Below, piece by piece: positions 1,145-57,273 of a DNA stretch of 64,000 nucleotides. How positions within the stretch are numbered: position 1 is the first letter of the stretch; the number at the start of each line of letters is the position of its first letter. The stretch spans positions 192,001-256,000 of the forward strand of contig CAWCDG010000004.1 of NCBI GenBank assembly GCA_963794325.1, written 5' to 3'. The stretch comes from an uncultured delta proteobacterium. Lineage in GTDB: Bacteria; Desulfobacterota; Binatia; Binatales; Binataceae. The position numbers and the translations under genes are program-made. The notes under the pieces were generated by a model. It ran no database searches. It had not been told where the DNA came from and saw nothing but the letters and a program-made list of their open reading frames with translations.

Positions 1145-1753
1145 ATGAGCGACAGCACCGTGTTCGCCGCACACATTGAAAAAATCCGGCGCAAGCTCTC
1201 GACCGTCACTCCGCCGCCGCGCGAGGCGCTCGCCAACAAATCAAATGCCGCCGCGGTGCTGATTCCAATCTTCGAGCGCGATGGCGAGCTGAACATCGTC
1301 TATATCCGCCGATCCGATCACGTCGCCAGTCATCGCGGGCAAGTCGCGTTCCCCGGCGGCCGGGTCGATCCAATCGATGCGACCCTGCTCGACGCGGCGC
1401 TGCGTGAGGCGCACGAAGAAGTCGGCATCCATCCTTCGGCCGTCGAGGTAATCGGCGCGTTCGCCACGATGCAGACGACGACCAGCGGAATCGTAGTCGC
1501 GCCATTCGTCGGCGTCATTGCTTCGGACGCGCCGCTCAAGCCGCAACTCTCCGAGGTCGCACAAATCTTCGATGTGCCGCTGAGCGCGCTGCGCGATCCC
1601 AAGTTCCGCGGCGACTACGAATGGAAGAGCGAGGGGCCCGCTACCCGCTCATCGAAATTTCCGGCGATACTGTACGGCGGCCAGACAATCTGGGGCCTGA
1701 CCCTGCGCATCACGCTGAACCTTCTCGAACTGCTCGATCCCGCCAAGACATGA
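1145..1753 (+). CDS. Nudix hydrolase, CoA pyrophosphatase (NudL/PCD1-like)
   Basis: AAVLIP, HRGQVAFPGG, Nudix box ALREAHEEVG, IWGLT. Confidence 0.9.
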   Translation: MSDSTVFAAHIEKIRRKLSTVTPPPREALANKSNAAAVLIPIFERDGELNIVYIRRSDHVASHRGQVAFPGGRVDPIDATLLDAALREAHEEVGIHPSAVEVIGAFATMQTTTSGIVVAPFVGVIASDAPLKPQLSEVAQIFDVPLSALRDPKFRGDYEWKSEGPATRSSKFPAILYGGQTIWGLTLRITLNLLELLDPAKT

Positions 1754-1777
1754 GCGAGCATCGCGATTCGCGCATAC

Positions 1778-1886
1778 AACCTAACCCTGTCCCGAGCGGG
1801 AAGGGGGACCGGAATGAGGAAACCGAGTCTTCGCCCCTTCTGCGATTGTTCCCCTTCCCTCGAGGGAAGGGGTTAGGGGTTAGGTT
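1778..1886. repeat. Inverted pair of CCTAACC-type REP units
   Basis: AACCTAACCCTGTCCCGAGCGGGAAGGGG ... CCCCTTCCCTCGAGGGAAGGGGTTAGGGGTTAGGTT. Confidence 0.85.
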
Positions 1887-1935
1887 CCTGACGATCATAC
1901 ACTCCGCACCAGAATAGATTCGAAGGGAGTCGAAG

Positions 1936-3513
1936 ATGGGACGCAATATTCTTTTTATCACCACCGATCAGCAGCGCTACGACGCGCTCGGATGCAATGG
2001 CGGCAAGATCGCGCAGACGCCGGTGGCCGACCGCCTCGCCGCCAACGGCATCAACTACAATCGCGCGCACAACCAGAATGTCGTCTGCATGCCGGCGCGA
2101 TCGACGATGATTACCGGCCAGTACGTGCGCACGCATGGCGTGGTGGCCAACGGCGTCGCGCTCCCGCCCGATGCGCCGAGCGTCGCGTCATATCTCCACG
2201 AGAAGGCCGGCTACCGCACCGCGCTGCTCGGCAAGGCGCATTTCGAGCCCGCCTTCGATTTGCAGGGGCGATGGTTCGAGAACTCGATGGCGCGCAAGAA
2301 TTCGACCGGGCCGTATCGCGGGTTCGATCGGATGGAACTCGCGATGCATACGCCGGTCGGCGGCTGGCATTACTCACTGTGGTTGCAGAACAACCATCCC
2401 GACGAGATCGCAGGCTTCGCGCCGATTCTAAGCGCGCTTCCGGGCGGCGACACCGGCGCGCCCGAAGTGAAATACAATCCCGTGCCGCGCGAGCATTACC
2501 ATACTGACTGGGTCGCCGCCCGAACGATCGCGTACCTCGACTCGCTCGATCCCAACGACAACTGGTTCGTGTGGATGAGCTTCCCCGACCCGCATCATCC
2601 GTGGGATCCGCCGCAGGACGAGGCGCGCCGAATCAACTGGCGCGATCTAGATCTGCCCGCCAGCTATCCCGGCTCGCGTGAAAAGATCGAGAAGATACTC
2701 TCCGGCAAGCCGCGCCATTGGCTCGACTGGTACGAAGGCCGCTTCGGCAATTTCGAAGGCGGCCCTGGCAGCTTCGTGCCGTGTCAGATGACCGAGAATC
2801 AGGTTCGCGAAGTCAACGCGATGACTCATGTCGAGAACGAACTGATCGACCAGGCATGCGGGCGGGTGCTCGATCGAATCGCCGAGCGCGGATGGGAATC
2901 GCGCACCGATGTAATTTTCACCACCGACCACGGCGAGCTGCAAGGCGACTTCGGCCTGCTCTACAAAGGCCCGTATCACGTCGATGCGCTGATGCGACTG
3001 CCGATGATCTGGAGGCCAGCGCCGTCGGCAAACGTCGCGCACAACGAAATCGCGGAGCCGGTCGGCCAACTCGATCTCGCGCCGACGTTCTGCCAAATCG
3101 CCGGCGTGCCGGTTCCCGATTGGATGCAGGGAAAGCCGCTGCCGGTTGCGCCGGGCAGTGGCCGCGAACGCGTTATCACCGAATGGGACAGCCAGTTCGC
3201 CGCAATCGGGATGCATCTGCGGAGTATCTACCGCGACGGCTACACGCTGACGGTTTACGAGAAATCGACCCGCGACGTCGGCTTCGACCTCGCCAACATT
3301 CCGCCGATGGTCGCGCCTCGCGGCGGCATTTTAGATATCCGCTACGACGGCACCGAGGGCGAGCTTTACAACCTGCGCGAAGACCCGATGCAATGGCGCA
3401 ATCTGTGGAACGATCCCGCATACGCAAAGCTGAAGTCCGACCTGCGCGCGGACCTGTACGACAATCTTCCGCCAGAGCGGAATCCGAAGCTGCCGGTCGA
3501 GGCGCCGGCGTGA
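1936..3513 (+). CDS. Sulfatase-family hydrolase (Cys-type)
   Basis: NILFITTDQQR, CMPAR (CxPxR), GKAH, PHHP, TTDHGE, ELYNL motifs. Confidence 0.92.
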   Translation: MGRNILFITTDQQRYDALGCNGGKIAQTPVADRLAANGINYNRAHNQNVVCMPARSTMITGQYVRTHGVVANGVALPPDAPSVASYLHEKAGYRTALLGKAHFEPAFDLQGRWFENSMARKNSTGPYRGFDRMELAMHTPVGGWHYSLWLQNNHPDEIAGFAPILSALPGGDTGAPEVKYNPVPREHYHTDWVAARTIAYLDSLDPNDNWFVWMSFPDPHHPWDPPQDEARRINWRDLDLPASYPGSREKIEKILSGKPRHWLDWYEGRFGNFEGGPGSFVPCQMTENQVREVNAMTHVENELIDQACGRVLDRIAERGWESRTDVIFTTDHGELQGDFGLLYKGPYHVDALMRLPMIWRPAPSANVAHNEIAEPVGQLDLAPTFCQIAGVPVPDWMQGKPLPVAPGSGRERVITEWDSQFAAIGMHLRSIYRDGYTLTVYEKSTRDVGFDLANIPPMVAPRGGILDIRYDGTEGELYNLREDPMQWRNLWNDPAYAKLKSDLRADLYDNLPPERNPKLPVEAPA

Positions 3514-10603: not shown

Positions 10604-11410
10604 ATGACTGTGATTTCACGCGGGGAGACGCTGCAACACGGGGTTGCCGGTCTGGAACGGAGCCATGGCGGCCGCCTTGGCGTCGCGGTTCTCGATAGCG
10701 TCGGCGGGAGCGTGATCGCGCATCGCGGTGACGAGCGCTTTGCGCTGTGCAGCAAGTTCAAGTTTCTCGCCGCAGCGTTGGTCCTGGCGCGGGTCGATCG
10801 CCGCCAGTAAAGTCTGACGCGCCGGATGGTCTATGCGCGAGATTACCTGGTTCCCTATTCCCCGGTAACCGCGAAGCACGCCGGCGAGCGCGGCCTGACG
10901 GTCGGCGAAATCTGCGCAGCCGCGATGACGCTTAGCGATAATACGGCTGGGAATCTTCTGCTCGACAGTTTTGGCGGACCGGCGGAACTGACGGCTTTCG
11001 CGCGGTCGCTCGAAGACAACGTCACGCGGCTCGACCGCCGCGAACCGGAGCTGAACGAGGCCGAACCCGGGGATCCGCGCGACACCACCAGCCCGATCGC
11101 GATGATCGAAGTTCTGCGCAAAATCGTTTTGGGGACCGCGCTATCCACTTCGTCTCGCGCGCAACTGACGGCCTGGCTCGTCGCCAACCAGACCGGGGAC
11201 AAGCGGCTGCGGGCCGGCGTGCCGAAAGGTTGGCGGGTCGGGGACAAAACGGGCACCGGCGCGAACAACGCGACCAACGACATCGCGGTCATCTGGCCGC
11301 CGATGCGCGCGCCAATCGTCGTGGCGGCATATTACGCCGAGGCTCGCGAATCGGACGACCACTGCAATGCGGTTCTGTCAGAGGTCGGGCGCCTCGCGTC
11401 GGCGCTTTGA
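10604..11410 (+). pseudogene. Class A beta-lactamase interrupted by an in-frame TAA
   Basis: ORFs 10604-10810 and 10826-11410 share a frame; SxxK (CSKFK), SDN, EPELN, KTG present; TAA at 10808-10810; no intact signal peptide. Confidence 0.88.
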
Positions 11411-15630: not shown

Positions 15631-18078
15631 CTATCTGGTTACTTTCACCTGCACCGAGGTCGTGTGGTGCAGCGGCCCGCTGTCACCCGCGATCGTAAGC
15701 GTAAAGATTTTGCCGGCTCCCTTCTTCGTGCGCAACTTCAACGTGCTGTTAGCAGTCGCCGGGTTTGGCGCAAACGTCGCCGTGCTCCCGGTCGGGGTAC
15801 CGCTGACGCTCAAAGTAACTGAACCCGCAAATCCGTTCAGAGAGGTCACTGTCACCGCATAGGTCGCGGTCTTTTTGCGGCGAACTTTCTCGGACGCCGG
15901 CGATGCCGATAGCGCGAAGTCGGGACTCGGGGTTGGGGTCGGTGTAGGCGTTGCCGTCTCGGTCGCGGTGGCCGTAGGGCTAGCGGTACTCGAGGCAGTC
16001 GCAGTTGGCGTGGCGGTCGCAGTCGGCGGCGAGGTAGCCGATGCGGTCGGTGTAGCTGTCGCAGTCTGCGTAGCGGTCGCGGTTTGAGTGACGGTGGCTG
16101 TCACCGTTGGCGTCGTCGTCGCGGTCTGAGTCGCCGTCGCAGTTGGTGTTGAGGTCGCCGTCCGAGTCGCGGTCGCTGTAGCAGTTGGGGTTGAGGTCGC
16201 CGTGGATGTTGCAGTTGGGGTTGCGGTGAGCGTCGCAGTTGGGGTCGCCGTGGCTGTTTGAGTCGCGGTCGAGGTCGGCGTCGCTGTCGTTGTGGCCGTT
16301 GAGGTCGCAGTGGAAGTTGCGGTTGGCGTCGCTGTACTCGTCCCGGTGGCCGTCGTAGTCGATGTCGCTGTAGCGGTTTGAGTCGCGGTGGCTGTTGGGG
16401 TCGCCGTTAGACTTGAGGTCGCCGTCACTGTCGGTGTTAACGTTGCTGTTTGAGTCGCGGTGGCTGTCGGCGTCTGCGTTGGCGTCGCGGTATTGGTCGC
16501 CGTTGCGGTCGCGGTTGGCGTCACGGTCGCGGTTAACGTGGCTGTGGCCGTCGCTGTTTGAGTCCCAGTGGCGGTCGCCGTCTGACTTGGCGTCGCGGTG
16601 GCGGTCGCAGTTGGAGTTAGCGTAGCGGTCGCGGTCAACGTGGCGGTCGCCGTCGCGGTATGAGTCGCAGTGGCTGTCGTCGTCGCTGTTGGTGTGGCCG
16701 TCGCTGTTTGGGTCGCAGTGGCGGTCGCCGTCTGAGTTGGCGTCGCGGTATTGGTCGCCGTTGCGGTCGCAGTTGGCGTAACGGTCTCGGTCAGCGTGGC
16801 GGTGGCCGTCGCTGTATGCGTCGCGGTGGCCGTCGCCGTCTGAGTTGGCGTCGCGGTATTGGTCGGGGTTGCGCTCGCGGTTGGCGTGACGGTCGCGGTC
16901 AGCGTGGCGGTGGCCGTTGCGGTATGCGTCGCAGTAGCCGTCGCCGTCCGAGTTGACGTCGCGGTATTGGTCGCCGTTGCGGTCGCAGTTGGAGTCCGGG
17001 TGGCGGTCGGTGTCGCGGTACGGGTCGCCGTATGCGTGGGAGTCGGGGTCGACGACGCGGTAACGATGCAAGCGTTGGCGTAGTTCGAGAACTCCTTTTG
17101 GACAGTGTAGGTCTGACCGTCTCCGCCGAGGATGCTGCCCTGCTGCGCGTTGCAGATATCGCCGATCTCGCCGTTGTTGTTGTCGTACCAGGCCAGTGGC
17201 GGCGCGAGGGCGCCCGCCAGCCCTACTTCGCAGTCAGTGATTGTCTCGGTCATCTCGTGCGAGGCGACCGAGGTGTAATTCCCGAAGACGGTACTGCCGC
17301 CGCATCCAGTGGCGCAGCCCGACCCGGTCTGCATGTCGGGATGGACGCCGTAATAAATCTCGCCGATTGAACCGCCGGCGTCGATCGTGCCGTGGTAGGC
17401 GCAGAAGCCGCCTGCAACGCAGGACTCCGATCCCCCCAAGGTGATAACCGTCCCGTGGGGGAAAAAGATCGCATAGTAGGTGTTATTGTTGCCGGCCGCG
17501 TCGGCCGTGGGGGCGGGTATGTGGCCGGCGTTAATCTGGTTCACCAACTCGGTCTGGATGGCGGTGTCGTCGATCGGGTTGGATTTGTCCGTAGGCGTGA
17601 TAGCGACTTGCACCGAGAAAGAGCCGTGGCCGATGGTCTGGTTGGTCCCCTCGCTGCCGCCGTGGTCGATAATGTCGGTGTTGTACTCGGTCAGCCAATC
17701 CACGTAGGCGCTGTTCAATACTTCTTCGTAAAAGGTCGCCATGCTCGGCGTGGAGGTGTTGACGACCTGCGATAGAAATTCGCCGTTGTTGCCGCCCGCG
17801 CCGCCAGTTCCCCACAGCACCTGAACCACTTGAAGGTTGGAGACGACCCGGCCGCCGTAGTAGGTGAGATGAGCGCCGCCCGGCGCCGCCGCTTTGAGAC
17901 TACCGACCCGCCGGATCGGCAGCGCGTTGGGACCTCCAACCAGCAGCGGATTGCTATTGGCGCCCGACGCCGCGGAGGCAATCGTCAGCATCGCCAGCAG
18001 GACCATCGCGCTGCGCAACGTCGAGAGCCATCGATGCTCTCGCGCAGACCGCGATCGGCTCACCCTCGCGTGTCTCAC
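15631..18078 (-). CDS. Secreted protein: Phi-1/EXORDIUM-like domain, long Thr/Ala linker, C-terminal Ig-like domain (start uncertain)
   Basis: Signal peptide; [33 protein letters not shown]; TATATPT repeats; [32 protein letters not shown]. Confidence 0.8.
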
Positions 18079-18288: not shown

Positions 18289-19050
18289 TCAGCCGATGCG
18301 GACGCTGGCGCCGATCAGACGGAGCCCCAGCCGGGCGGCGACGCGCTGCGATGATCGGTTGGATTGGCTGGTGCTGTAGAAAAGCGCGCGCTGATTGAGA
18401 GATCGCATCGATGACCAAGCGGCCGTGACCGCCGCCGCAAGTCCACGGCTTCGATATTTCGGAAATGTGTAGACGCCGACCTCTGCTCCTCTGACTCCAA
18501 GGCGAGCCGCGAACGCCATCGACGCGATGTCGGCGCCGACGAGCGCGACGCACCATGGCTCCCAGAAGTCCCCTACCCGCTTGAAGCCCGCGGTCCGCAT
18601 GTAATCCGGCATCCCGCGATCCGCGAGACGCGCCAACAATTGACGGCCTTGTTCGGAGTCGCCTCGGACGATCGCGGCGGGATGTTGGTATTTCAGTCCG
18701 TTCGGAATTTTATAGATGAGAGCCGACGAGGTTGCGGCGGGCTGGCCGTCAGACAGCAACTCGACCATCATTGCCAAGCACGCCGGCGGCGCGGCGGGAT
18801 CGCTCGATGGAGGCTCCTTTGCGGCGACCTCGACTATGCGCTCCGCGATGCGATCGTCAACGTCGTAGCGAACGCGGGTAAGGTTACCGAACGGGCATCC
18901 GGCGAAGAACGCGCGCGGCCCCGACGAGCGATCCGGATCGTTCTCGCGCTCGATGCGCCCCGACGCCGACATGACGAACATCGTGTCGATATCGACGTGG
19001 AGCAGCCGCAGGTCTTCAGCAATCACGGCGCTGGAAATGGGCTCCGTCAC
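18289..19050 (-). CDS. GNAT-family acetyltransferase (start uncertain)
   Basis: GVYTFPKYRSRGLAAA acetyl-CoA motif; NRSSQRVAARLGL. Confidence 0.82.
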   Translation of the reverse strand: MTEPISSAVIAEDLRLLHVDIDTMFVMSASGRIERENDPDRSSGPRAFFAGCPFGNLTRVRYDVDDRIAERIVEVAAKEPPSSDPAAPPACLAMMVELLSDGQPAATSSALIYKIPNGLKYQHPAAIVRGDSEQGRQLLARLADRGMPDYMRTAGFKRVGDFWEPWCVALVGADIASMAFAARLGVRGAEVGVYTFPKYRSRGLAAAVTAAWSSMRSLNQRALFYSTSQSNRSSQRVAARLGLRLIGASVRIG

Positions 19051-19153
19051 ATTCACAAGGTAAAGGCGGGCTGGTTTGACGATCAAGCTGACGGACGGCC
19101 CTCCCACTGTGTGGATTCGGGGTTGCGATGCGGGTTAAGATGCCCATTCAGTG

Positions 19154-19399
19154 ATGGATCCGAAGGAAATCGAGACGATGATTGCGCGCGGGATTCCCGA
19201 TGCGCAGGTCGAGGTGCGCGACTACACCGGCGGCGGAGACCATTTCGAAGCCGTGGTGGTCAGCGCGAGTTTCGAGGGCAAGGGTCTAATCGAACGGCAT
19301 CAACTGGTGTATAAGGCGCTGGGCGACGCGATGCGCGCGCAGGTGCATGCGCTGACTCTCAAGACCTTGACGCCGGCGCAAAATCAGAACCGCAGATAG
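19154..19399 (+). CDS. bolA: BolA/IbaG family protein
   Basis: GDHFEAVVVSASFEGKGLIERHQLVY..VHALTLKT. Confidence 0.93.
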   Translation: MDPKEIETMIARGIPDAQVEVRDYTGGGDHFEAVVVSASFEGKGLIERHQLVYKALGDAMRAQVHALTLKTLTPAQNQNRR

Positions 19400-19410
19400 A
19401 GGAAATAACA

Positions 19411-19743
19411 ATGGCGGACATAATCGAAAAGATCGAAGCGGCAGTCAAAGAAAACAAGATCATGATCTTCATGAAGGGTAACCGCAGCTTTCCGCAGTGC
19501 GGATTCTCGGCGGCGACCGTCGCGATTTTCGACGAGATCGGCGAGCCGTACGCGACCGCCGACGTGCTGAGCGATCCGGAACTGCGCGACGCGATCAAGC
19601 AATACAGCAACTGGCCGACGATTCCGCAGGTATATGTCGACGGCAAGTTCGTCGGCGGCTGCGACATCATTCGCGAGATGCACGAGTCGGGCGAGCTCGA
19701 GCCGCTGGTGAAAGCGGCGGTGGGAGCATCGGCGCAGCAGTAG
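19411..19743 (+). CDS. grxD: Monothiol glutaredoxin Grx4
   Basis: FMKG, PQCGFS, WPTIPQ, GGCDI. Confidence 0.96.
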   Translation: MADIIEKIEAAVKENKIMIFMKGNRSFPQCGFSAATVAIFDEIGEPYATADVLSDPELRDAIKQYSNWPTIPQVYVDGKFVGGCDIIREMHESGELEPLVKAAVGASAQQ

Positions 19744-19760
19744 ATCGCGGCGTTCCAGGC

Positions 19761-19840
19761 AACCTAACCCCTAACCCCTTCCCGAGCGGGAAGGGGAACC
19801 GGATAAAGGAAAGACCCTTCCCTCGTCGAGGGAAGGGGAA
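19761..19840 (+). repeat. CCTAACC-type REP unit plus a second hairpin
   Basis: AACCTAACCCCTAACCCCTTCCCGAGCGGGAAGGGGAACC; CCCTTCCCTCGTCGAGGGAAGGG. Confidence 0.88.
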
Positions 19841-19871
19841 TAATCGAGCGGATCGATCGCGGAGGATATCC

Positions 19872-20762
19872 ATGCTCACCGAACAGGAACGTTCGTTTCT
19901 CGAGGCGATGGCCAAGGCTCCGATGCCCACCGATGTCCAGGGGCTGCGAACGCTGATGGATACGTTCGCGCCGATGATGAATCAGAATCTTCCCGAGATT
20001 GGCGCGCTGCATGAGGCTGTGGAAATTCGGCCGAGTCTCACCGCCGATGTGGCGGTGCCGAAGGGGAAAGGGCCGTTTCCGGTAGTCGTGTATCTGCACG
20101 GCGGAGGATGGGTCGGCGGCAGTTCGAAATCGCATCGCAAACTCGGCATGCAATTCGCCGAGGCGGGTTATCTGACGATCAACGTCGATTATCGCCTCGC
20201 GCCCGAGCATCCGTTTCCCGCCGGCCTCGACGACTGCGTGCGTGCGGTGAAGTGGGCCGGGGAAAACGCAAAGCGATGGGACGGCGATGCGTCGCGGCTG
20301 GCGGTTGGCGGCGATTCTGCCGGCGGCAATCTCACTGCGGCGACAGTCACGTCGCTCGCATCGGAGAAATACGCGGGTCCGGGGAAGCCGAAGGCTGCGC
20401 TTTTGATCTACGGGTTGTTCGATTTTCCCGCGCAGATGAAACGCGACGGCGCCGCAGCGTTCGACGGAATGATCAAGGCGTACGCGGGCGCGGGATATCC
20501 CGCGATTCTGGAGGATCCGCGAGTCAGCCCGCTGCGCGGGGTGAAGCCGGGCGCGATGCCGCCGAGCTTCCTTATATGCGGCACCGCGGACACTCTGCTG
20601 CCGGAGACGCACTCGATGGCCGATGCGCTCAAGCGCGCCGACATCAGGCACGAAGTCGCGATCTTCGACGACATGCCGCACGGCTTCCTGCAGATGGACG
20701 TGCTGTCGGGATGCAAGCAGGGACTCGACAAGATGTTCGATTTTCTGCGTCGCACGATTTAG
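19872..20762 (+). CDS. HSL-family alpha/beta hydrolase (esterase/lipase)
   Basis: HGGGW, DYRLAPEHPFPA, GDSAGG, HGF; GGAGG RBS. Confidence 0.93.
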   Translation: MLTEQERSFLEAMAKAPMPTDVQGLRTLMDTFAPMMNQNLPEIGALHEAVEIRPSLTADVAVPKGKGPFPVVVYLHGGGWVGGSSKSHRKLGMQFAEAGYLTINVDYRLAPEHPFPAGLDDCVRAVKWAGENAKRWDGDASRLAVGGDSAGGNLTAATVTSLASEKYAGPGKPKAALLIYGLFDFPAQMKRDGAAAFDGMIKAYAGAGYPAILEDPRVSPLRGVKPGAMPPSFLICGTADTLLPETHSMADALKRADIRHEVAIFDDMPHGFLQMDVLSGCKQGLDKMFDFLRRTI

Positions 20763-20794
20763 CGCTCAAGCCCGTTCAGCCGGGGAGAACTGCG

Positions 20795-21409
20795 ATGGCC
20801 TGGATAAAGACTGTCGGCGAAGATCAGGCGGTCGGGCGGCTCGCGGAAATCTACCAGAAGTATCGCGGGCGCAACGGCATGGTGCCCAACATCATGCAGG
20901 CGTTCAGTCTCAAGCCTGAGCTGGTCGGCGCGGTGGCGCACACTTTCCAGGTCGCGACGTTCGGCGGATCGAAGCTGACGCGGGTGCAGGAAGAGATGAT
21001 CGCGACGGTCGTCTCGTCGATCAACCGCTGCCACTACTGAACCAACGCGCACGCGGAGGTTCTCCGCGTCCATAGTAACGGCGATAACGACTTGGTTGCG
21101 CACGTCAAGCACGACTGGCGCACGGCTCCGCTGTCGGAGGCGGACAAAGCGATGCTCGCCTACGCGGAAAAGATCACGATGAATCCGTCGTCGATGACGC
21201 TGGACGACCTGAACTGCCTGCGCGCGCATTTCAGCGAAGAGCAGACGCTGGATATCGTGGTGATCGCGAGCCTGTTCAACTTTATCGATCGAATCGCGGA
21301 CGGTCTCGGCGTCGAGCTCGATTCGGTGCTGAAGGAGATGGCGGCGAGGTCGCCGGATGGCGAGGCGCTGACGGAGGTTGCTGCATCGATGCGGGGGAAG
21401 AAGAAGTAG
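20795..21409 (+). CDS. AhpD/CMD-like peroxidase, probable selenoprotein (Sec at codon 82)
   Basis: MAWIKTV..EMIATVVSSINRCHY-TGA-TNAH reads through in frame into DWRTAPLS..AYAEKIT..FNFIDRIADGLG; CxxUxxxH matches the AhpD CxxCxxxH motif; hairpin follows the TGA. Confidence 0.88.
21041..21069 (+). promoter_or_regulatory. Bacterial SECIS-like element
   Basis: 10 nt after TGA 21038-21040: perfect stem ACGCGGAG / loop GTT / CTCCGCGT, with G first in the loop. Confidence 0.78.
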
Positions 21410-21601
21410 GAAGGCTGCTCATCATCCTGACGAAGCGAGGAGACGAGCCTCATGTGTCATCCTGACAGAGCGAGCACCGCGAGCGGCAGGAAATGGCTGC
21501 TGGCCTCCGGACAGCTTCGCGCAAGCGAAGCCGGTTCCGGTTTCTGAGATCGCGCAGCGCCCCTTGTTTATGACGGCGCGGACGTCGCGAACAATGCAAG
21601 C

Positions 21602-21642
21602 AACCTAACCCCTAACCCCTTCCCGAGCGGGAAGGGGAACCG
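21602..21642 (+). repeat. CCTAACC-type REP unit
   Basis: Identical to 19761-19801. Confidence 0.9.
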
Positions 21643-21662
21643 AAAAAAATTGAAAGGGGAAT

Positions 21663-22256
21663 TTACCAGAAGCGGATGCGGCCGGTATCTACGTGGACGA
21701 AGTCGCTCTTGGGATAGTAGCCGACGCCGCCGGAACGTTGCGCTAGCGCGGCGCCGCGGAGCTGTTCGAGGCTTCGTCCTTTCAGCGTGATGTCGATAGC
21801 CTTGCCCTCGAGGTGGAGACTGTGGACCGCGACGCCTTCGCTGTTCGCATGGAGCATCGCATTGGTCACGGGCGAGCGGTATCCGGAAATCACCTGGAAC
21901 GGCTCGTTGACGCCTAGCCGGTGCTGGATGCGGGTCAGCAAATCGAGCAGCGCGGGATCGATCGGTTTTACTTCGTTGGCGCGGAAGTCGCGCAGGATGT
22001 AGTTGACCCGATCGAGTTCGCCGGGAATGTAGCGGCCATTCTCCCAGTACGTCGTGGTCAGGCTTTCGCCGGTATGCAGAGCGTAGAACTTGAGCGAGCG
22101 GCGTCGAAGCTGGACTGTCGTGCGGGCCATCGCGATCGCGGGCACAACCAGTTGTGCCGCGGCAATCGCGCTAATGCGGAGGAACCGCCGCCGCGATAAG
22201 TCCGCGGGACGCGTGGATTGCGACTGTGACTGCTCCCTCAACTTTCGTCGCCGCAA
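21663..22256 (-). CDS. YcbK/MepK-like M15 peptidoglycan endopeptidase, Tat-exported (start uncertain)
   Basis: SRRRFLR Tat motif; HTGE, LRDFR, SGYRSP, SLHLEGKAID, GGVGYYP..FVHVDTG. Confidence 0.92.
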   Translation of the reverse strand: MRRRKLREQSQSQSTRPADLSRRRFLRISAIAAAQLVVPAIAMARTTVQLRRRSLKFYALHTGESLTTTYWENGRYIPGELDRVNYILRDFRANEVKPIDPALLDLLTRIQHRLGVNEPFQVISGYRSPVTNAMLHANSEGVAVHSLHLEGKAIDITLKGRSLEQLRGAALAQRSGGVGYYPKSDFVHVDTGRIRFW

Positions 22257-24366: not shown

Positions 24367-25758
24367 ATGGCGCTGTGGAAACCTGATCAAACCTTTTACC
24401 CGTCGGCGCGGATGGCGATGCAGGCGCCGCGCGAGCAGCTCGGCTACGTCGTCGCGTTCAATCCGACGCCGGCGAACAACAAGCATGACGCGCTGTGCGT
24501 GATCGACCTCGATCCGAAATCGACGACCTACTCGCAGGTCGTCGGCCGCGCCGCAGTGCCGAATGCCGGCGACGAGCTGCATCACTTTGGATGGAACGCG
24601 TGCAGCGCCGCGCTGTGCCCCTACGCGCCGCATCCCCATGTCGAGCGGCGCTATCTGCTGGTGCCGGGATTGCGATCGTCGCGGATCTATATTTTCGACA
24701 CGAAACCCGACCCGAGGAATCCGAAGCTGGTGAAGACGATCGAGGCCGACGAAATAGCGTCGCGCACGGGATACAGCCGGCCGCATACGATTCATTGCGG
24801 GCCCGATGCGATTTACGTCAGCGCGCTTGGCGATCCAAAGGGTGATGGGCCGGGCGGAATCTTCCTGCTCGATCATGAAAGCTTCGACGTGCTGGGGCGA
24901 TGGGAAGTCGATCGCGGGCCGCAGAAGCTTGCGTACGATTTCTGGTGGCATCTCGGCTGGGACGTGGCGATTACCAGCGAATGGGGCACGCCGAACATGA
25001 TCGAAAACGGCGTGGTGCCCGAGTTGCTGCTGGGAAATAAATACGGACACGCGATTCACATCTGGAATCTGCGCAACCGGCGCCATCTGAAGTCACTCGA
25101 CCTGGGCGCCGAGAATCAAATGGCGCTCGAGCTGCGTCCGTCGCACGACCCGACCAAGACGTTTGGTTTCGTCGGCGTCGTGATCTCGACCAAGGATTTG
25201 TCGGCGTCGATCTGGCTGTGGCATCGCGATGGCGGCGACTGGAAAGTTCGCAAGGTGATCGAAATTCCCGCCGAGCCCGCCGACGAAAGCCTGCTGCCGC
25301 CGGCGCTTAAGCCGTTCAAGGCAGTGCCGCCGTTGATTACCGACATCAACCTGAGTCTCGACGATAAATTTCTATACGTCGCGTGCTTCGGCACCGGCGA
25401 CCTGAAGCAATACGATGTGAGCGATCCGTTCAAACCGAAGGAGACGGGCAGCGTGCGGCTGGGCGGGATCGTGTCGCACGGGAAGCATCCGAAGAGCGGG
25501 CCGCTCAACGGCGGGTCGCAGATGATCGAGCTGAGCCGCGACGGGCGGCGCGCGTACATGTCGAACTCGCTGTACGGCGCGTGGGATGCGCAATTCTATC
25601 CCGAGGGCATCCGCGGCTGGATCGCGAAGATCGATTGTGCGCCGGCGGGCGGGATGACGATCGATCCTGATTTCTTCACGACCTTCGACGGCGAACGGCC
25701 GCATCAGATTCGCCTCGAAGGCGGCGACTCGTCGTCCGATTCGTTCTGCTATCCGTGA
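24367..25758 (+). CDS. Selenium-binding protein SBP56 family (methanethiol oxidase-like)
   Basis: TFYPS, GDELHHFGWNACS, PHTIHC, YDFWW, SEWG, ELRPSH, LSLDDKFLY, WDAQFYP, HQIRLEGGD..SD. Confidence 0.93.
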   Translation: MALWKPDQTFYPSARMAMQAPREQLGYVVAFNPTPANNKHDALCVIDLDPKSTTYSQVVGRAAVPNAGDELHHFGWNACSAALCPYAPHPHVERRYLLVPGLRSSRIYIFDTKPDPRNPKLVKTIEADEIASRTGYSRPHTIHCGPDAIYVSALGDPKGDGPGGIFLLDHESFDVLGRWEVDRGPQKLAYDFWWHLGWDVAITSEWGTPNMIENGVVPELLLGNKYGHAIHIWNLRNRRHLKSLDLGAENQMALELRPSHDPTKTFGFVGVVISTKDLSASIWLWHRDGGDWKVRKVIEIPAEPADESLLPPALKPFKAVPPLITDINLSLDDKFLYVACFGTGDLKQYDVSDPFKPKETGSVRLGGIVSHGKHPKSGPLNGGSQMIELSRDGRRAYMSNSLYGAWDAQFYPEGIRGWIAKIDCAPAGGMTIDPDFFTTFDGERPHQIRLEGGDSSSDSFCYP

Positions 25759-44429: not shown

Positions 44430-45854
44430 TTAATTCGCGGGAATCGCAGTCACGTAATCGAAATCCAGCGCTTGATGGTTGATTCCGCGCACCGGCGGCG
44501 CGATCCAGTTCGCGAACTTACCCGGTACGGTGACGGGCTTCATCAATGATGCGACGAATTCACGATCGGCTTGCGTCGGCAGCCATTCCGATTGGTGCCG
44601 TTGCCACTCCTCTTCGCTGACGATCTGCCCGGCCGGCGTTACGTTCACACTCGCGAATTCGCCGATCGATCGTCGAAACCCGCGATGCGGCAGTTTGAGC
44701 TCAAAGCCTACCCCGGCTTCACGAATAATCTTGTTCCATCGCGCCAGCGCGCGCTCGCAATCGGCAATATAGGAATCGCGTAGAGTCTCGTTCAACGCAT
44801 TCAGCGCCGGCTGCTCAGTCTGAATGATTTTTTCAGTACCAGGTTTCAGGACTGGGTAGCTGGCACCTTTCAGCTGATGGTCGTCGTCTCGGTCGGTCTC
44901 CTTGAAGCGTCCCTTGAGGCCTGCGCTGTAGTAAGTCGCCGCATTCGTGGATAGCTCGGACCCGAACAGATCGAGCGACACTGAGTAATGAAAGTTTATA
45001 TACTTCTGAATGATACTCAGATCGACGCCGCCATACTCACTGACTATTTCAGTATTGTGCTCCTTCATCAGTTGGCAGGTGCGGGCGATGACGCGGCCGA
45101 CTCCCGACTCGCCGACGAACAGATGATGCGCCTCTTCGGTCAGCATGAAGCGGCAGGTGCGCGCGAGCGGATCGAATCCCGATTCGGCCAGGCTCGCGAG
45201 CTGATACTTGCCGTCGCGGTCGGTGAAATGCGCGAACATGAAGTACGACAGCCAGTCGGGCGTCTTCTCGTTGAACGCACCGAGGATGCGCGGGTTGTCC
45301 GCGTTGCCCGATCGGCGTTGCAACAGCGCATCAGCCTCTTCGCGGCCGTCGCGTCCGAAGTAAGCGTGGAGCAGATAGACCATCGCCCACAGATGACGCC
45401 CTTCTTCGACGTTGACCTGAAAAAGATTGCGCAGGTCGTAGAGCGACGGACAGGTCCTGCCGAGATGCCGCTGCTGCTCGACCGACGCCGGCTCAGTGTC
45501 GCCCTGCGTCACAATCAGCCGGCGCAGGACTCCGCGATGCTCACCCGGCACGTCGCGCCAGACCGGTTCGCCCTTATGCTCTCCGAACGGAATGCGGCGA
45601 TCGAGCTCGGGGTCGGCCAGGAAAATCCCCCATCGATAATCCGGCATCTTGACGTAGCCGAAAGTCGCCCAACCCTGCGCATCAGTCGAGATCGCGGTCC
45701 GCAAATATACATCGCAGCCCTGAAAAGTTTCGGGGCCCATTTCATTCCACCATTGCAGGAATCCCGGCTGCCACGCCTCGAGCGCGCGCTGCAGGCGGCG
45801 GTCGTCGGTAAGATTCACGTTGTTGGGAATCCGCTCGGAATAGTTGATCGCCAT
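44430..45854 (-). CDS. boxB: Benzoyl-CoA 2,3-epoxidase subunit B
   Basis: INYSERIPNNV, QGDTEPASVEQQ, EEGRH and EEAHH di-iron motifs, DRDGKYQL. Confidence 0.96.
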   Translation of the reverse strand: MAINYSERIPNNVNLTDDRRLQRALEAWQPGFLQWWNEMGPETFQGCDVYLRTAISTDAQGWATFGYVKMPDYRWGIFLADPELDRRIPFGEHKGEPVWRDVPGEHRGVLRRLIVTQGDTEPASVEQQRHLGRTCPSLYDLRNLFQVNVEEGRHLWAMVYLLHAYFGRDGREEADALLQRRSGNADNPRILGAFNEKTPDWLSYFMFAHFTDRDGKYQLASLAESGFDPLARTCRFMLTEEAHHLFVGESGVGRVIARTCQLMKEHNTEIVSEYGGVDLSIIQKYINFHYSVSLDLFGSELSTNAATYYSAGLKGRFKETDRDDDHQLKGASYPVLKPGTEKIIQTEQPALNALNETLRDSYIADCERALARWNKIIREAGVGFELKLPHRGFRRSIGEFASVNVTPAGQIVSEEEWQRHQSEWLPTQADREFVASLMKPVTVPGKFANWIAPPVRGINHQALDFDYVTAIPAN

Positions 45855-47503
45855 CAGACTCTCCTCGGATCGAATTCCGGCCGCGCTCCGGTGCCGTAAA
45901 GTTTCAGCGCGCCTTTTTCTCCGACCGCGTTGGGCCGCTGAAAGATCCAGTTCTGCCACGCCGACAGACGGGCAAATATTTTCGATTCAATCGTCTCCGG
46001 CCCGCCAAATCGCAACGACGCCTCCATCCCGGTGAGCGCGTCCGACGAAAATGCCGCGCGTTCCTCGAGCGCAAGGCGCACCTCGTCGTCCCAGTCGATC
46101 TCGTCGGGCGTGAACGTCACGAGGCCTTCTTCATCGGCCTGAGATGCATCAAGCTGCTCGCCAATCTTCGCGCGCAAATGCTCGACGCGCTGCGGCTCTC
46201 CCAGAAACCTGCTCTCCAGCCGCGTCAATCCGTTGCACATCGGCATCGCGCCAAAATTTATTTCCGTGAAGCTGATATTCGCCGGCATCGATTCGTCGCC
46301 CTCGCGCAGTCCGCGCAGCATGTAGGTGCGATCCGACGCCAGCGCAAGCTCCAACAGCGTCCCGCAAAAACATGACCCCGGTTCGATCAATGCGAAAATC
46401 GATCGCGAGCTGACGTCGAGTCGTTTCAACATGCGTTTCAAGTAGAGCCGGATTTCTCGCACCAGCCAGTCGTCTGCGTTTGCGGCGAGGAATACGTCGT
46501 GCGATTTCACCAGCGCCGCATCGCCCAGCGTGCGAAAGATCCACGTCCGCACCGTGTCCTCGTTGAAGCGCAGATGCAGGATCGCATCTTCGAGTTCGCG
46601 TGCAATCGCCAACGGCCAGAAGTCCGCGCCGATCGAATGAGCGTCCTCGACGTTGCGCGGCGCCGGATTCTTCGGACCCTCGACAGTGAAGGTCGCGGTG
46701 GAATTGTCACGATCGATATCGATCGTCAGGTACTGATACTTGATCCGTCGCTCTTCGATGTCGCGCTGGAGCCGGCCGAAGGATATTCCGCGAGGATTAG
46801 CGGTTCCATTCGCACGCGCGGCAAACTCGAGCGCTCTTCGCGATGCCGACTCGATAAGCTGCGACCGCGGAACGACCTCGTCCACCAGTTGCCATTCGAC
46901 AGCGCGCTTGCCCCTGACTCCTTCCTCGGTGGTGCAAAAAAAATCCGCGCGGTCGCGTCGGACGCGGCGCTTATCAACCAGCCGGGTCAGCCCGCCCGTC
47001 CCCGGCAGCACGCCGAGCAGCGCGACCTCCGGCAGGGAAACGCTGGTCGAGCCATCGTCCGCCATCATTATATAGTCGGTCGCGAGTGCGAGCTCGTAAC
47101 CACCGCCGGCACACGCCCCGCCAATCGCCGTCATGTAGTACTGGCCCGAGTTGAGCGTCGCGTCCTCAATCGCATTGCGCGTCTCGTTGGTGAACTTGCA
47201 GAAATTCACCTTGAACGGATGGCTCGACAGGCCGAGCATCCTGATGTTCGCGCCCGCGCAGAAGACGCGCTCCTTGCCCGACGTGACGATCACGCATTTC
47301 ACTTCGGGATGCTCGAAGCGCATCCGATTCACGGCATCGTTGAGCTCGATATCGACCCCGAGATCGTACGAATTGAGCTTGAGCTCGTAGCCCGGCGCGA
47401 GGCCGCCGTTTTCATCCACGTCCATCGCGAGCGTCGCGACCGGCCCGGCGAAACTCAAACGCCAATGCCGATATGCGGACGGCTCGATTCGAAAGTCGAT
47501 CAT
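45854..47503 (-). CDS. boxC: 2,3-epoxybenzoyl-CoA dihydrolase
   Basis: YELKLNSYDLGVDIEL, KVNFCKFTNETRN, GGGYELALA, WQNWIFQRPNA. Confidence 0.96.
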   Translation of the reverse strand: MIDFRIEPSAYRHWRLSFAGPVATLAMDVDENGGLAPGYELKLNSYDLGVDIELNDAVNRMRFEHPEVKCVIVTSGKERVFCAGANIRMLGLSSHPFKVNFCKFTNETRNAIEDATLNSGQYYMTAIGGACAGGGYELALATDYIMMADDGSTSVSLPEVALLGVLPGTGGLTRLVDKRRVRRDRADFFCTTEEGVRGKRAVEWQLVDEVVPRSQLIESASRRALEFAARANGTANPRGISFGRLQRDIEERRIKYQYLTIDIDRDNSTATFTVEGPKNPAPRNVEDAHSIGADFWPLAIARELEDAILHLRFNEDTVRTWIFRTLGDAALVKSHDVFLAANADDWLVREIRLYLKRMLKRLDVSSRSIFALIEPGSCFCGTLLELALASDRTYMLRGLREGDESMPANISFTEINFGAMPMCNGLTRLESRFLGEPQRVEHLRAKIGEQLDASQADEEGLVTFTPDEIDWDDEVRLALEERAAFSSDALTGMEASLRFGGPETIESKIFARLSAWQNWIFQRPNAVGEKGALKLYGTGARPEFDPRRV

Positions 47504-47588
47504 CAGGAAGTCTCCCGCTTGGAACAAGCGTTCAGCTTAATATAGACCGCAAAATACCTGTCGATTCAACAACGGTGGTTGTCGCGAT

Positions 47589-56292: not shown

Positions 56293-57273
<981 letters not shown>

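Follow-up and report, generated by a model that had tools for sequence, protein, structure and literature searches.

We conclude with high confidence that positions 20795-21409 of the 64,000-nucleotide (nt) stretch analyzed here (the window; part of contig CAWCDG010000004.1 from an uncultured delta proteobacterium of the Binataceae) form one gene, predicted to encode an AhpD-like selenoprotein with a CxxU motif, and that a hairpin of the selenocysteine insertion sequence (SECIS) type lies 3′ of its UGA codon. The in-frame TGA very probably encodes selenocysteine (Sec, U) and is not a stop. The gene is a single plus-strand frame from ATG 20795 to TAG 21407-21409, and its sole interruption is the TGA at 21038-21040; the open reading frames (ORFs) called with table 11, 20108-21040 and 21092-21409, share this one frame. 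Reading the TGA as U gives a protein of 204 amino acids (aa) with the motif R-C79-H-Y-U82-T-N-A-H86, and homologues likewise begin M-A-W-I-K-T. A sequence-only reading had proposed that the ORF track splits one gene at this TGA, that the 204-aa product carries it at the second Cys position of the AhpD motif C-H-Y-U-T-N-A-H, and that a perfect 8-bp hairpin with G first in its loop starts 10 nt after it. All of these coordinates and the shared frame were recovered, and both the translation and the alignment to a solved structure agree with the placement of the TGA. The core of that reading, one AhpD-like CxxU selenoprotein gene with a SECIS-type hairpin, is upheld because the product belongs to a matching family, Sec and Cys alternate among relatives, a covarying hairpin is confined to the TGA forms, and selection acts on both sides of the TGA.

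The predicted product matches the NCBIfam family TIGR01926 ("peroxidase-related enzyme") with 120.7 bits against a cut-off of 81.8, and since residues 2-173 are aligned with profile positions 1-173 of 178, the match runs across the TGA. The Pfam domain CMD (PF02627, the carboxymuconolactone decarboxylase/AhpD domain) scored 33.4 bits against a cut-off of 23, and the core domain model TIGR00778 scored 34.4 bits against 27.8. Five solved structures labeled "peroxidase-related" were matched by sequence at E ≤ 1e-13. Among solved structures, PDB 6k40_A ("Alkyl hydroperoxide reductase AhpD") matches best (E = 5e-26 over residues 6-173); its N-R-C-V-Y-C aligns with N-R-C-H-Y-U, so that U82 falls on the second Cys of the CxxC. 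Relative to this column, C at −3 and H at +4 are kept in all 80 sequences compared (the window and 79 related loci) and E at −15 in 79 of the 80. The residues E67, C79, U82, and H86 fit E-x11-C-x2-C-x3-H, the signature of the AhpD family. The model NF041238 (AhpD_rel_CFYUT, "alkylhydroperoxidase-related (seleno)protein") gave 94.9 bits against a cut-off of 175, with only profile positions 151-344 of 357 covered. By its sequence, the window protein is thus best described as an AhpD-like protein related to that family and not a member of it. "Peroxidase" is used here as the family label for an AhpD-like protein whose enzymatic activity is predicted.

A scan with one genome per species yielded 297 related stretches, and all locus counts given here refer to the best 80 of these 297. 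The alignment extends across residue 82 in 79 of the 80 loci, the remaining one (L053) being a partial gene. The closest loci (L001-L004, 89-92% identity) lie on contigs of metagenome-assembled genomes (MAGs) labeled as an uncultured delta proteobacterium, and four others (L007, L008, L010, and L012) are labeled Candidatus Binataceae. At the residue-82 column, 73 loci have TGA, six have a Cys codon, and TGG does not occur among the 79. The TGA is aligned directly in 70 loci; in L045, L047, and L052 the alignment is one codon off and the TGA is the preceding codon. The Cys codon is TGC in L036, L037, L042, and L059 and TGT in L040 and L076. Alternation of Sec and Cys at a catalytic Cys is a classical mark of a selenoprotein family, and Cys or TGA at this column is exactly what the sequence-only reading had expected of homologues. 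The assemblies bearing the TGA come from several phyla. A protein search returned 16 matches at E ≤ 1e-10, 14 of which were aligned with the query; P0016 and P0017 were excluded, as they match only a quarter to a third of its length. At the Sec column, full-length database relatives show W (P0002, P0004, P0011, and P0012) or G (P0014), seven entries of 113-119 aa (P0003 and P0005-P0010) begin just past it, and P0015 stops at C-H-Y. We suggest that these residues, late starts, and the early end probably reflect an in-frame TGA mishandled by gene callers, either through tables 4 and 25 or through truncation.

Within the window, TGA is an ordinary stop that terminates 24 of the 52 coding-like ORFs. 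When all TGAs in the six frames were considered, only that at 21038-21040 was flanked on either side by coding-like codon-position G+C, and the same coding-potential test around TGAs revealed no further hidden selenoprotein in the window. Pairwise ratios of nonsynonymous to synonymous substitution (dN/dS) between the window and L001-L004 range from 0.04 to 0.11 in codons 1-81 and from 0.07 to 0.18 in codons 83-204; purifying selection acts on the gene before as well as after the TGA. The stretch from the TGA to the first possible internal start is conserved at the protein level, with synonymous differences between the window and its relatives.

The hairpin at the window locus consists of ACGCGGAG (21051-21058), the loop GTT (21059-21061), and CTCCGCGT (21062-21069), which form eight perfect pairs. 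Its first stem base lies 10 nt past the TGA, and the loop GUU begins 18 nt past the UGA with G first. In the 74 TGA sequences (73 loci and the window), the best uninterrupted hairpin with a loop start 10-31 nt past the UGA was compared with those of 300 synonymous-codon permutations; this position-restricted statistic was used in place of a minimum free energy (MFE) test of the whole region. The best hairpins of the TGA forms average −10.5 kcal/mol, against −5.8 kcal/mol after permutation, and 64 of the 74 are at or below −7.5 kcal/mol. The corresponding means for the Cys forms are −2.25 and −2.24 kcal/mol, with none of the six significant; the hairpin is absent from all six. The geometry is also kept. 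The loop starts 16-20 nt past the UGA in 69 of the 74 TGA sequences (16, 17, 18, 19, and 20 nt in 5, 29, 33, 1, and 1, respectively) and at 25 nt in five. G is the first loop base in 63 of the 74 and stands within the first two bases in 72, the exceptions being L008 and L014 with the loop UUC.

Forty distinct combinations of arms and loop occur among the 74 TGA sequences, and the peptides encoded beneath the hairpin vary by clade (H-A-E-V-L-R-V, H-G-E-F-L-C-E, H-R-R-G-L-R-R, H-G-R-A-A-R-E, and H-A-G-S-L-V-R-R). Between clades, the hairpin persists even though its pairs move against the codon frame. Because the register differs in this way, pairs were counted per register group and not by a single covariance model. 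In the register group of 25 sequences, 87.5% of the cells are paired, compared with 33-67% when the partner is slid, and two-sided changes occur in five of eight pairs, a level reached by none of 500 shuffles. The group of 16 sequences with the loop GGUCU has 83.8% of its cells paired, compared with 23-60% on sliding, and two-sided changes in four of seven pairs, which 22 of 500 shuffles reached. The window's own group (the window and L001-L017), which stands outside these pair counts, shows one two-sided change, from C-G to U-A in L005, L007, and L015, and two of its members (L016 and L017) have lost the two outer stem pairs. A small loop with a G at a fixed distance, covariation, and absence where Cys replaces Sec are the characteristics of a bacterial SECIS element, and the comparison of these sequences points to all three in the putative element.

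Several results weigh against this interpretation. The 61-nt region 21030-21090 folds with a z score of only −1.58 relative to dinucleotide shuffles, 13 of 200 of which fold as well, and synonymous-codon permutation equals the window's hairpin in 16% of trials (p = 0.16), because H-A-E-V-L-R-V written in G+C-rich codons tends to pair. Taken individually, 26 of the 74 TGA forms reach p ≤ 0.05, and the p-values are not independent since the sequences are related. The whole-region MFE is also weak against synonymous-codon permutation (mean z of −0.58, with 7 of 74 at p ≤ 0.05). An Rfam search of 20700-21500 at E ≤ 10 found no SECIS family, its two hits being chance-level matches to archaeal snoRNAs (E of about 4). 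No selA, selB, selD, or tRNA-Sec was detected within the window by ARAGORN, Rfam, the NCBIfam ORF scan, or tblastn, and the flanks of L001-L015, the closest relatives, likewise yielded no gene of the Sec machinery. Lastly, the available portions of the literature covered report no substrate for the Sec forms of the family. Perfect hairpins with a stem of 8 bp or more and a 3-8-nt loop number 54 in the window, compared with about 15 in Markov-1 simulations. By itself, the window's hairpin is no more than chance would give, but the comparative data raise it well above chance.

The sequence-only reading had also inferred a genome that encodes SelA/B/C/D, none of which the window carries. The missing sel genes are not evidence of absence, since 64 kb is a small part of a genome. 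The NCBIfam scan covered 53 window ORFs (51 of the 52 that passed the filter on G+C by codon position, with 21092-21409 omitted, plus the esterase ORF and the L,D-transpeptidase ORF) and found no selA, selB, or selD among them; across the whole window, ARAGORN and Rfam at the gathering score found only a tRNA-Leu. There was no tRNA-Sec in the flanks of the 80 loci. When the E. coli proteins SelA, SelB, and SelD were compared by tblastn with 1,314,645 bases (the window plus the 80 loci), the single match was a selA homologue at 1286-2308 (plus strand) of L070, an Actinomycetota MAG contig; it is 48% identical to its E. coli counterpart across 349 aa (E = 9e-84). It begins 74 nt past the AhpD-like Sec gene of that contig (667-1212), which places a selenoprotein gene directly beside a gene for Sec synthesis.

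It might be supposed that the TGA arose by a nonsense mutation or by a sequencing or assembly error in a CxxC gene, changing TGC or TGT to TGA and leaving a pseudogene with an 81-aa fragment. The TGA is indeed one base from either Cys codon, ORF calling splits the gene, and Sec machinery was not seen in the window. However, the same TGA recurs in 73 of 79 independent assemblies from several phyla, the dN/dS values beyond it are those of a part under purifying selection, and the hairpin covaries, so we consider such an origin extremely unlikely. The division into two small genes, with the TGA closing an 81-aa N-terminal protein and TTG 21092 opening a C-terminal one of about 105 aa, might appear to be borne out by the short database entries that begin just past the TGA and by P0015. 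Yet both parts are covered by a single family profile and by a solved fold of one chain, and T-N-A-H-A-E-V-L-R-V, which follows the TGA and precedes any possible start, is conserved at the protein level and includes the invariant H at +4. Moreover, the internal start lacks a ribosome-binding context, the starts of the fragments vary between entries, and the six relatives with a Cys codon have one uninterrupted gene. The chance of two genes is practically negligible.

Translation of the TGA as a standard amino acid without Sec, whether as Trp or Gly through a variant code or as Cys or Trp through near-cognate read-through, would account for the database relatives with W or G at the column and would agree with the lack of Sec machinery in the window. 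The ORFs that stop at TGA and the presence of one coding-flanked in-frame TGA in the window, however, point to the standard code; given that no locus has TGG at the column, the W and G residues are best explained by the callers' use of tables 4 and 25. In addition, the column is that of the catalytic Cys of the family, and plain read-through needs no conserved hairpin of the SECIS type. This decoding is, in our view, very unlikely. Equally slight is the probability that the gene does encode a selenoprotein while the hairpin at 21051-21069 is a by-product of H-A-E-V-L-R-V, with the real SelB-binding element located elsewhere or shaped differently. The frequency of equal hairpins among the permutations and the weak MFE tests would be in line with this, as would the other pairings that the RNAfold MFE prefers in some loci. 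Against it, clades with other peptides keep the hairpin at the same distance even as its register shifts against the codons, two-sided changes affect the pairs of both register groups counted, and the hairpin is missing from the Cys forms even though their H-x-E/D-A-L peptides are similar.

If the gene encodes a selenoprotein, its mRNA hairpin, 10 nt past the UGA, would likely recruit SelB with Sec-tRNA(Sec); the UGA would then be decoded as Sec and the ribosome would continue to the TAG at 21407. In the protein, predicted to be a thiol/selenol oxidoreductase, the selenolate of U82 would likely be the attacking nucleophile, with C79 resolving the intermediate as a selenenylsulfide, and E67 and H86 may serve as the acid/base pair of the family. 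As its substrate, we consider a peroxide or an oxidized partner of the peroxiredoxin type probable.

The features of the locus and of the genes upstream of it are collected in Table 1.

Table 1. Coordinates of the predicted selenoprotein gene, its signals, and its upstream neighbors in the window
Feature	Position	Strand	Evidence and remarks
AhpD-like selenoprotein coding sequence (predicted)	20795..21409	+	204 aa, U at residue 82, TAG stop 21407-21409; translation with TGA = U, TIGR01926, PF02627, 6k40_A, dN/dS
In-frame UGA, very probably U82, in place of the second Cys of the CxxC redox motif	21038..21040	+	6k40_A alignment, codons of relatives, coding flanks
SECIS-type hairpin, 8-bp stem and GUU loop	21051..21069	+	sequence, fold, geometry in relatives, covariation, absence from Cys forms
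GGGGAG, likely ribosome-binding site, 7 nt before the ATG	20782..20787	+	read off the sequence; putative function
Alpha/beta-hydrolase esterase (Abhydrolase_3, hormone-sensitive-lipase type)	19872..20762	+	PF07859, E = 8e-47; NCBIfam LipP1-type match below cut-off
Monothiol glutaredoxin Grx4	19411..19743	+	TIGR00365, 141.1 bits against a cut-off of 117.1
BolA-like	19151..19399	+	BolA match below cut-off

All ten syntenic relatives (L001-L008, L014, and L015) have BolA and Grx4 upstream of the AhpD-like gene and on its strand. The position of the esterase varies. In four of the ten (L004, L005, L007, and L015), it is intact and ends about 60 nt or less from the AhpD-like gene; it is in pieces in L006 and missing in L008 and L014. 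In L001-L003, 1.5-3.5 kb separate the two genes, and the gap of L001, the sole one inspected, is occupied by a 499-aa membrane-protein ORF. The sequence-only reading had placed the end of the esterase 32 nt upstream, which the stop TAG at 20760-20762 bears out, and had considered cotranscription probable. In the window this remains plausible, given the common strand, the 32-nt gap, and the lack of a terminator-like site, but the linkage is not conserved among relatives. A promoter and terminator scan of 19000-21800 found nothing on the plus strand. Downstream, on the opposite strand, MepK, L,D-transpeptidase, and enoyl-CoA hydratase genes are present in eight of the ten syntenic relatives, and L005 and L007 have none of them. 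A perfect hairpin of at least 8 bp at 21616-21640 (plus strand; it can be read in two nested ways, from 21616 or from 21617) lies between the stop of the selenoprotein gene at 21409 and the convergent end of MepK at 21663. It could be a shared terminator and was not flagged by the terminator scan. Further downstream, a 463-aa ORF at 24367-25758 (plus strand) is akin to the methanethiol oxidase MtoX, with 118.4 bits, below the cut-off of 650, and is syntenic in L001-L004, L006, L015, and L053. MtoX belongs to the selenium-binding-protein family.

The window also carries a full-length member of the ArsS family ("arsenosugar biosynthesis radical SAM (seleno)protein") at 56293-57273 on the minus strand, which scores 426.6 bits with TIGR04167 (cut-off 300). 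With the C terminus A-G-S-S-C-G-G-A-I-A, it has Cys in place of the Sec of the family motif; it is a Cys form and ends with a TAA stop. The ArsS family is listed with a GxxU Sec motif in the available part of a review (PMC13188914).

Other ORFs of the window include one of 194 aa at 10826-11410 that matches class A beta-lactamase (plus strand; NF033103, 251 bits against a cut-off of 200), which covers profile positions 65-253 of 257 and, as delimited, lacks the N-terminal part. The 272-aa product of 18289-19107 (minus strand) resembles the kasugamycin acetyltransferase AAC(2′)-IIa with 222.8 bits, below the cut-off of 510, and is probably a related GNAT with a predicted acetyltransferase function. 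BoxB and BoxC of the aerobic benzoyl-CoA pathway (the benzoyl-CoA 2,3-epoxidase subunit and 2,3-epoxybenzoyl-CoA dihydrolase) are encoded at 44430-47527 (minus strand), both far above their cut-offs. The 363-aa ORF at 15980-17071 (minus strand) has the highest third-position G+C of the window (0.90); since it matches MSCRAMM adhesin models in repeat regions only, it probably encodes a low-complexity repeat protein.

AhpD-like CxxU proteins entered the literature in 2005 as a selenoprotein family newly recognized in Sargasso Sea data, with 27 sequences assigned to COG2128 and SECIS-like hairpins with a loop G, according to the available text of PMC1088965. In the Global Ocean Sampling metagenome, the available text of a 2008 study (PMC2398784) places AhpD-like proteins among the most abundant selenoprotein families, AhpD-like 1 comprising 299 Sec forms and 902 Cys homologues. 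Of two sources from 2026, likewise available in part, a review lists "AhpD-like protein / TIGR01926 / CxxU" among prokaryotic selenoproteins (PMC13188914), and a database paper uses the AhpD-like family as a browsing example (PMC13326102). The window gene is an ordinary further member of this family, known since 2005, and it does not change existing knowledge of Sec decoding or of AhpD-like proteins.

The value of the finding is partly one of annotation. Standard ORF calling splits the gene, and relatives in public sets appear as 113-119-aa fragments or with W or G at the catalytic position; as a result, selenoprotein content is understated and family alignments are distorted. The gene also implies selenium dependence of at least one redox enzyme in a G+C-rich, uncultured lineage, and it illustrates cleanly how a SECIS hairpin persists through drift of the codons beneath it and of its pairing register. 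A full-text literature search found nothing linking Binatia or Binatota with selenocysteine, the sole occurrence of "seleno-" in one Binatota paper being a reference title, and no mention of the BolA-Grx4 neighborhood was found in the available parts of PMC1088965, PMC2398784, and PMC13188914. We put forward only tentatively, as a possibility that we regard as rather doubtful, that the gene is the first documented sign of selenocysteine use in the Binataceae and Binatia and that its place in a conserved string of BolA-Grx4-(variable insert)-AhpD(Sec) hints at work with Grx4 and BolA rather than with a peroxiredoxin.

Compared with solved AhpD-like proteins of the Cys type (6k40_A; also 2oyo, 2pfx, and 3c1l), the window protein has the same E-x11-C-x-x-C-x3-H arrangement, which in 6k40_A corresponds residue for residue. 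Those proteins have Cys where the window protein has the UGA and presumed Sec, and they need no recoding element. We presume 6k40 to be DR_1765. The AhpD-like protein DR_1765 of Deinococcus radiodurans protects against H2O2 in a manner that depends on the CxxC cysteines, as stated in the available part of a review (PMC8945050). With the AhpD of Mycobacterium tuberculosis, the lipoamide-dependent AhpC reductase modeled by TIGR00777, the window protein shares the CMD/AhpD core domain and an active site of the CxxC type. It scores 16.9 bits with this canonical AhpD model, whereas the cut-off is 191.95, and the NCBIfam ORF scan found no adjoining ahpC or lipoamide-enzyme gene. The window protein should not be named AhpD proper.

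The SelB-dependent E. coli fdhF SECIS, taken as a control from NC_000913.3 with the same distance measure, is likewise a hairpin in the coding sequence directly 3′ of the UGA, and in both cases the loop lies at 18 nt with G first. The fdhF stem, however, is longer and bulged and has a 4-nt loop starting with GG, whereas the hairpin of the window has eight perfect pairs in its stem and a loop of 3 nt. The closest correspondence is to the known AhpD-like selenoprotein family (COG2128/TIGR01926), with which the window gene has in common the same domain, a CxxU with the putative Sec at the second Cys position, homologues with Cys, and a small hairpin with a loop G 3′ of the UGA. There is no essential difference between them; what differs is the host lineage, the closest loci being labeled as an uncultured delta proteobacterium or as Candidatus Binataceae or Binatia.

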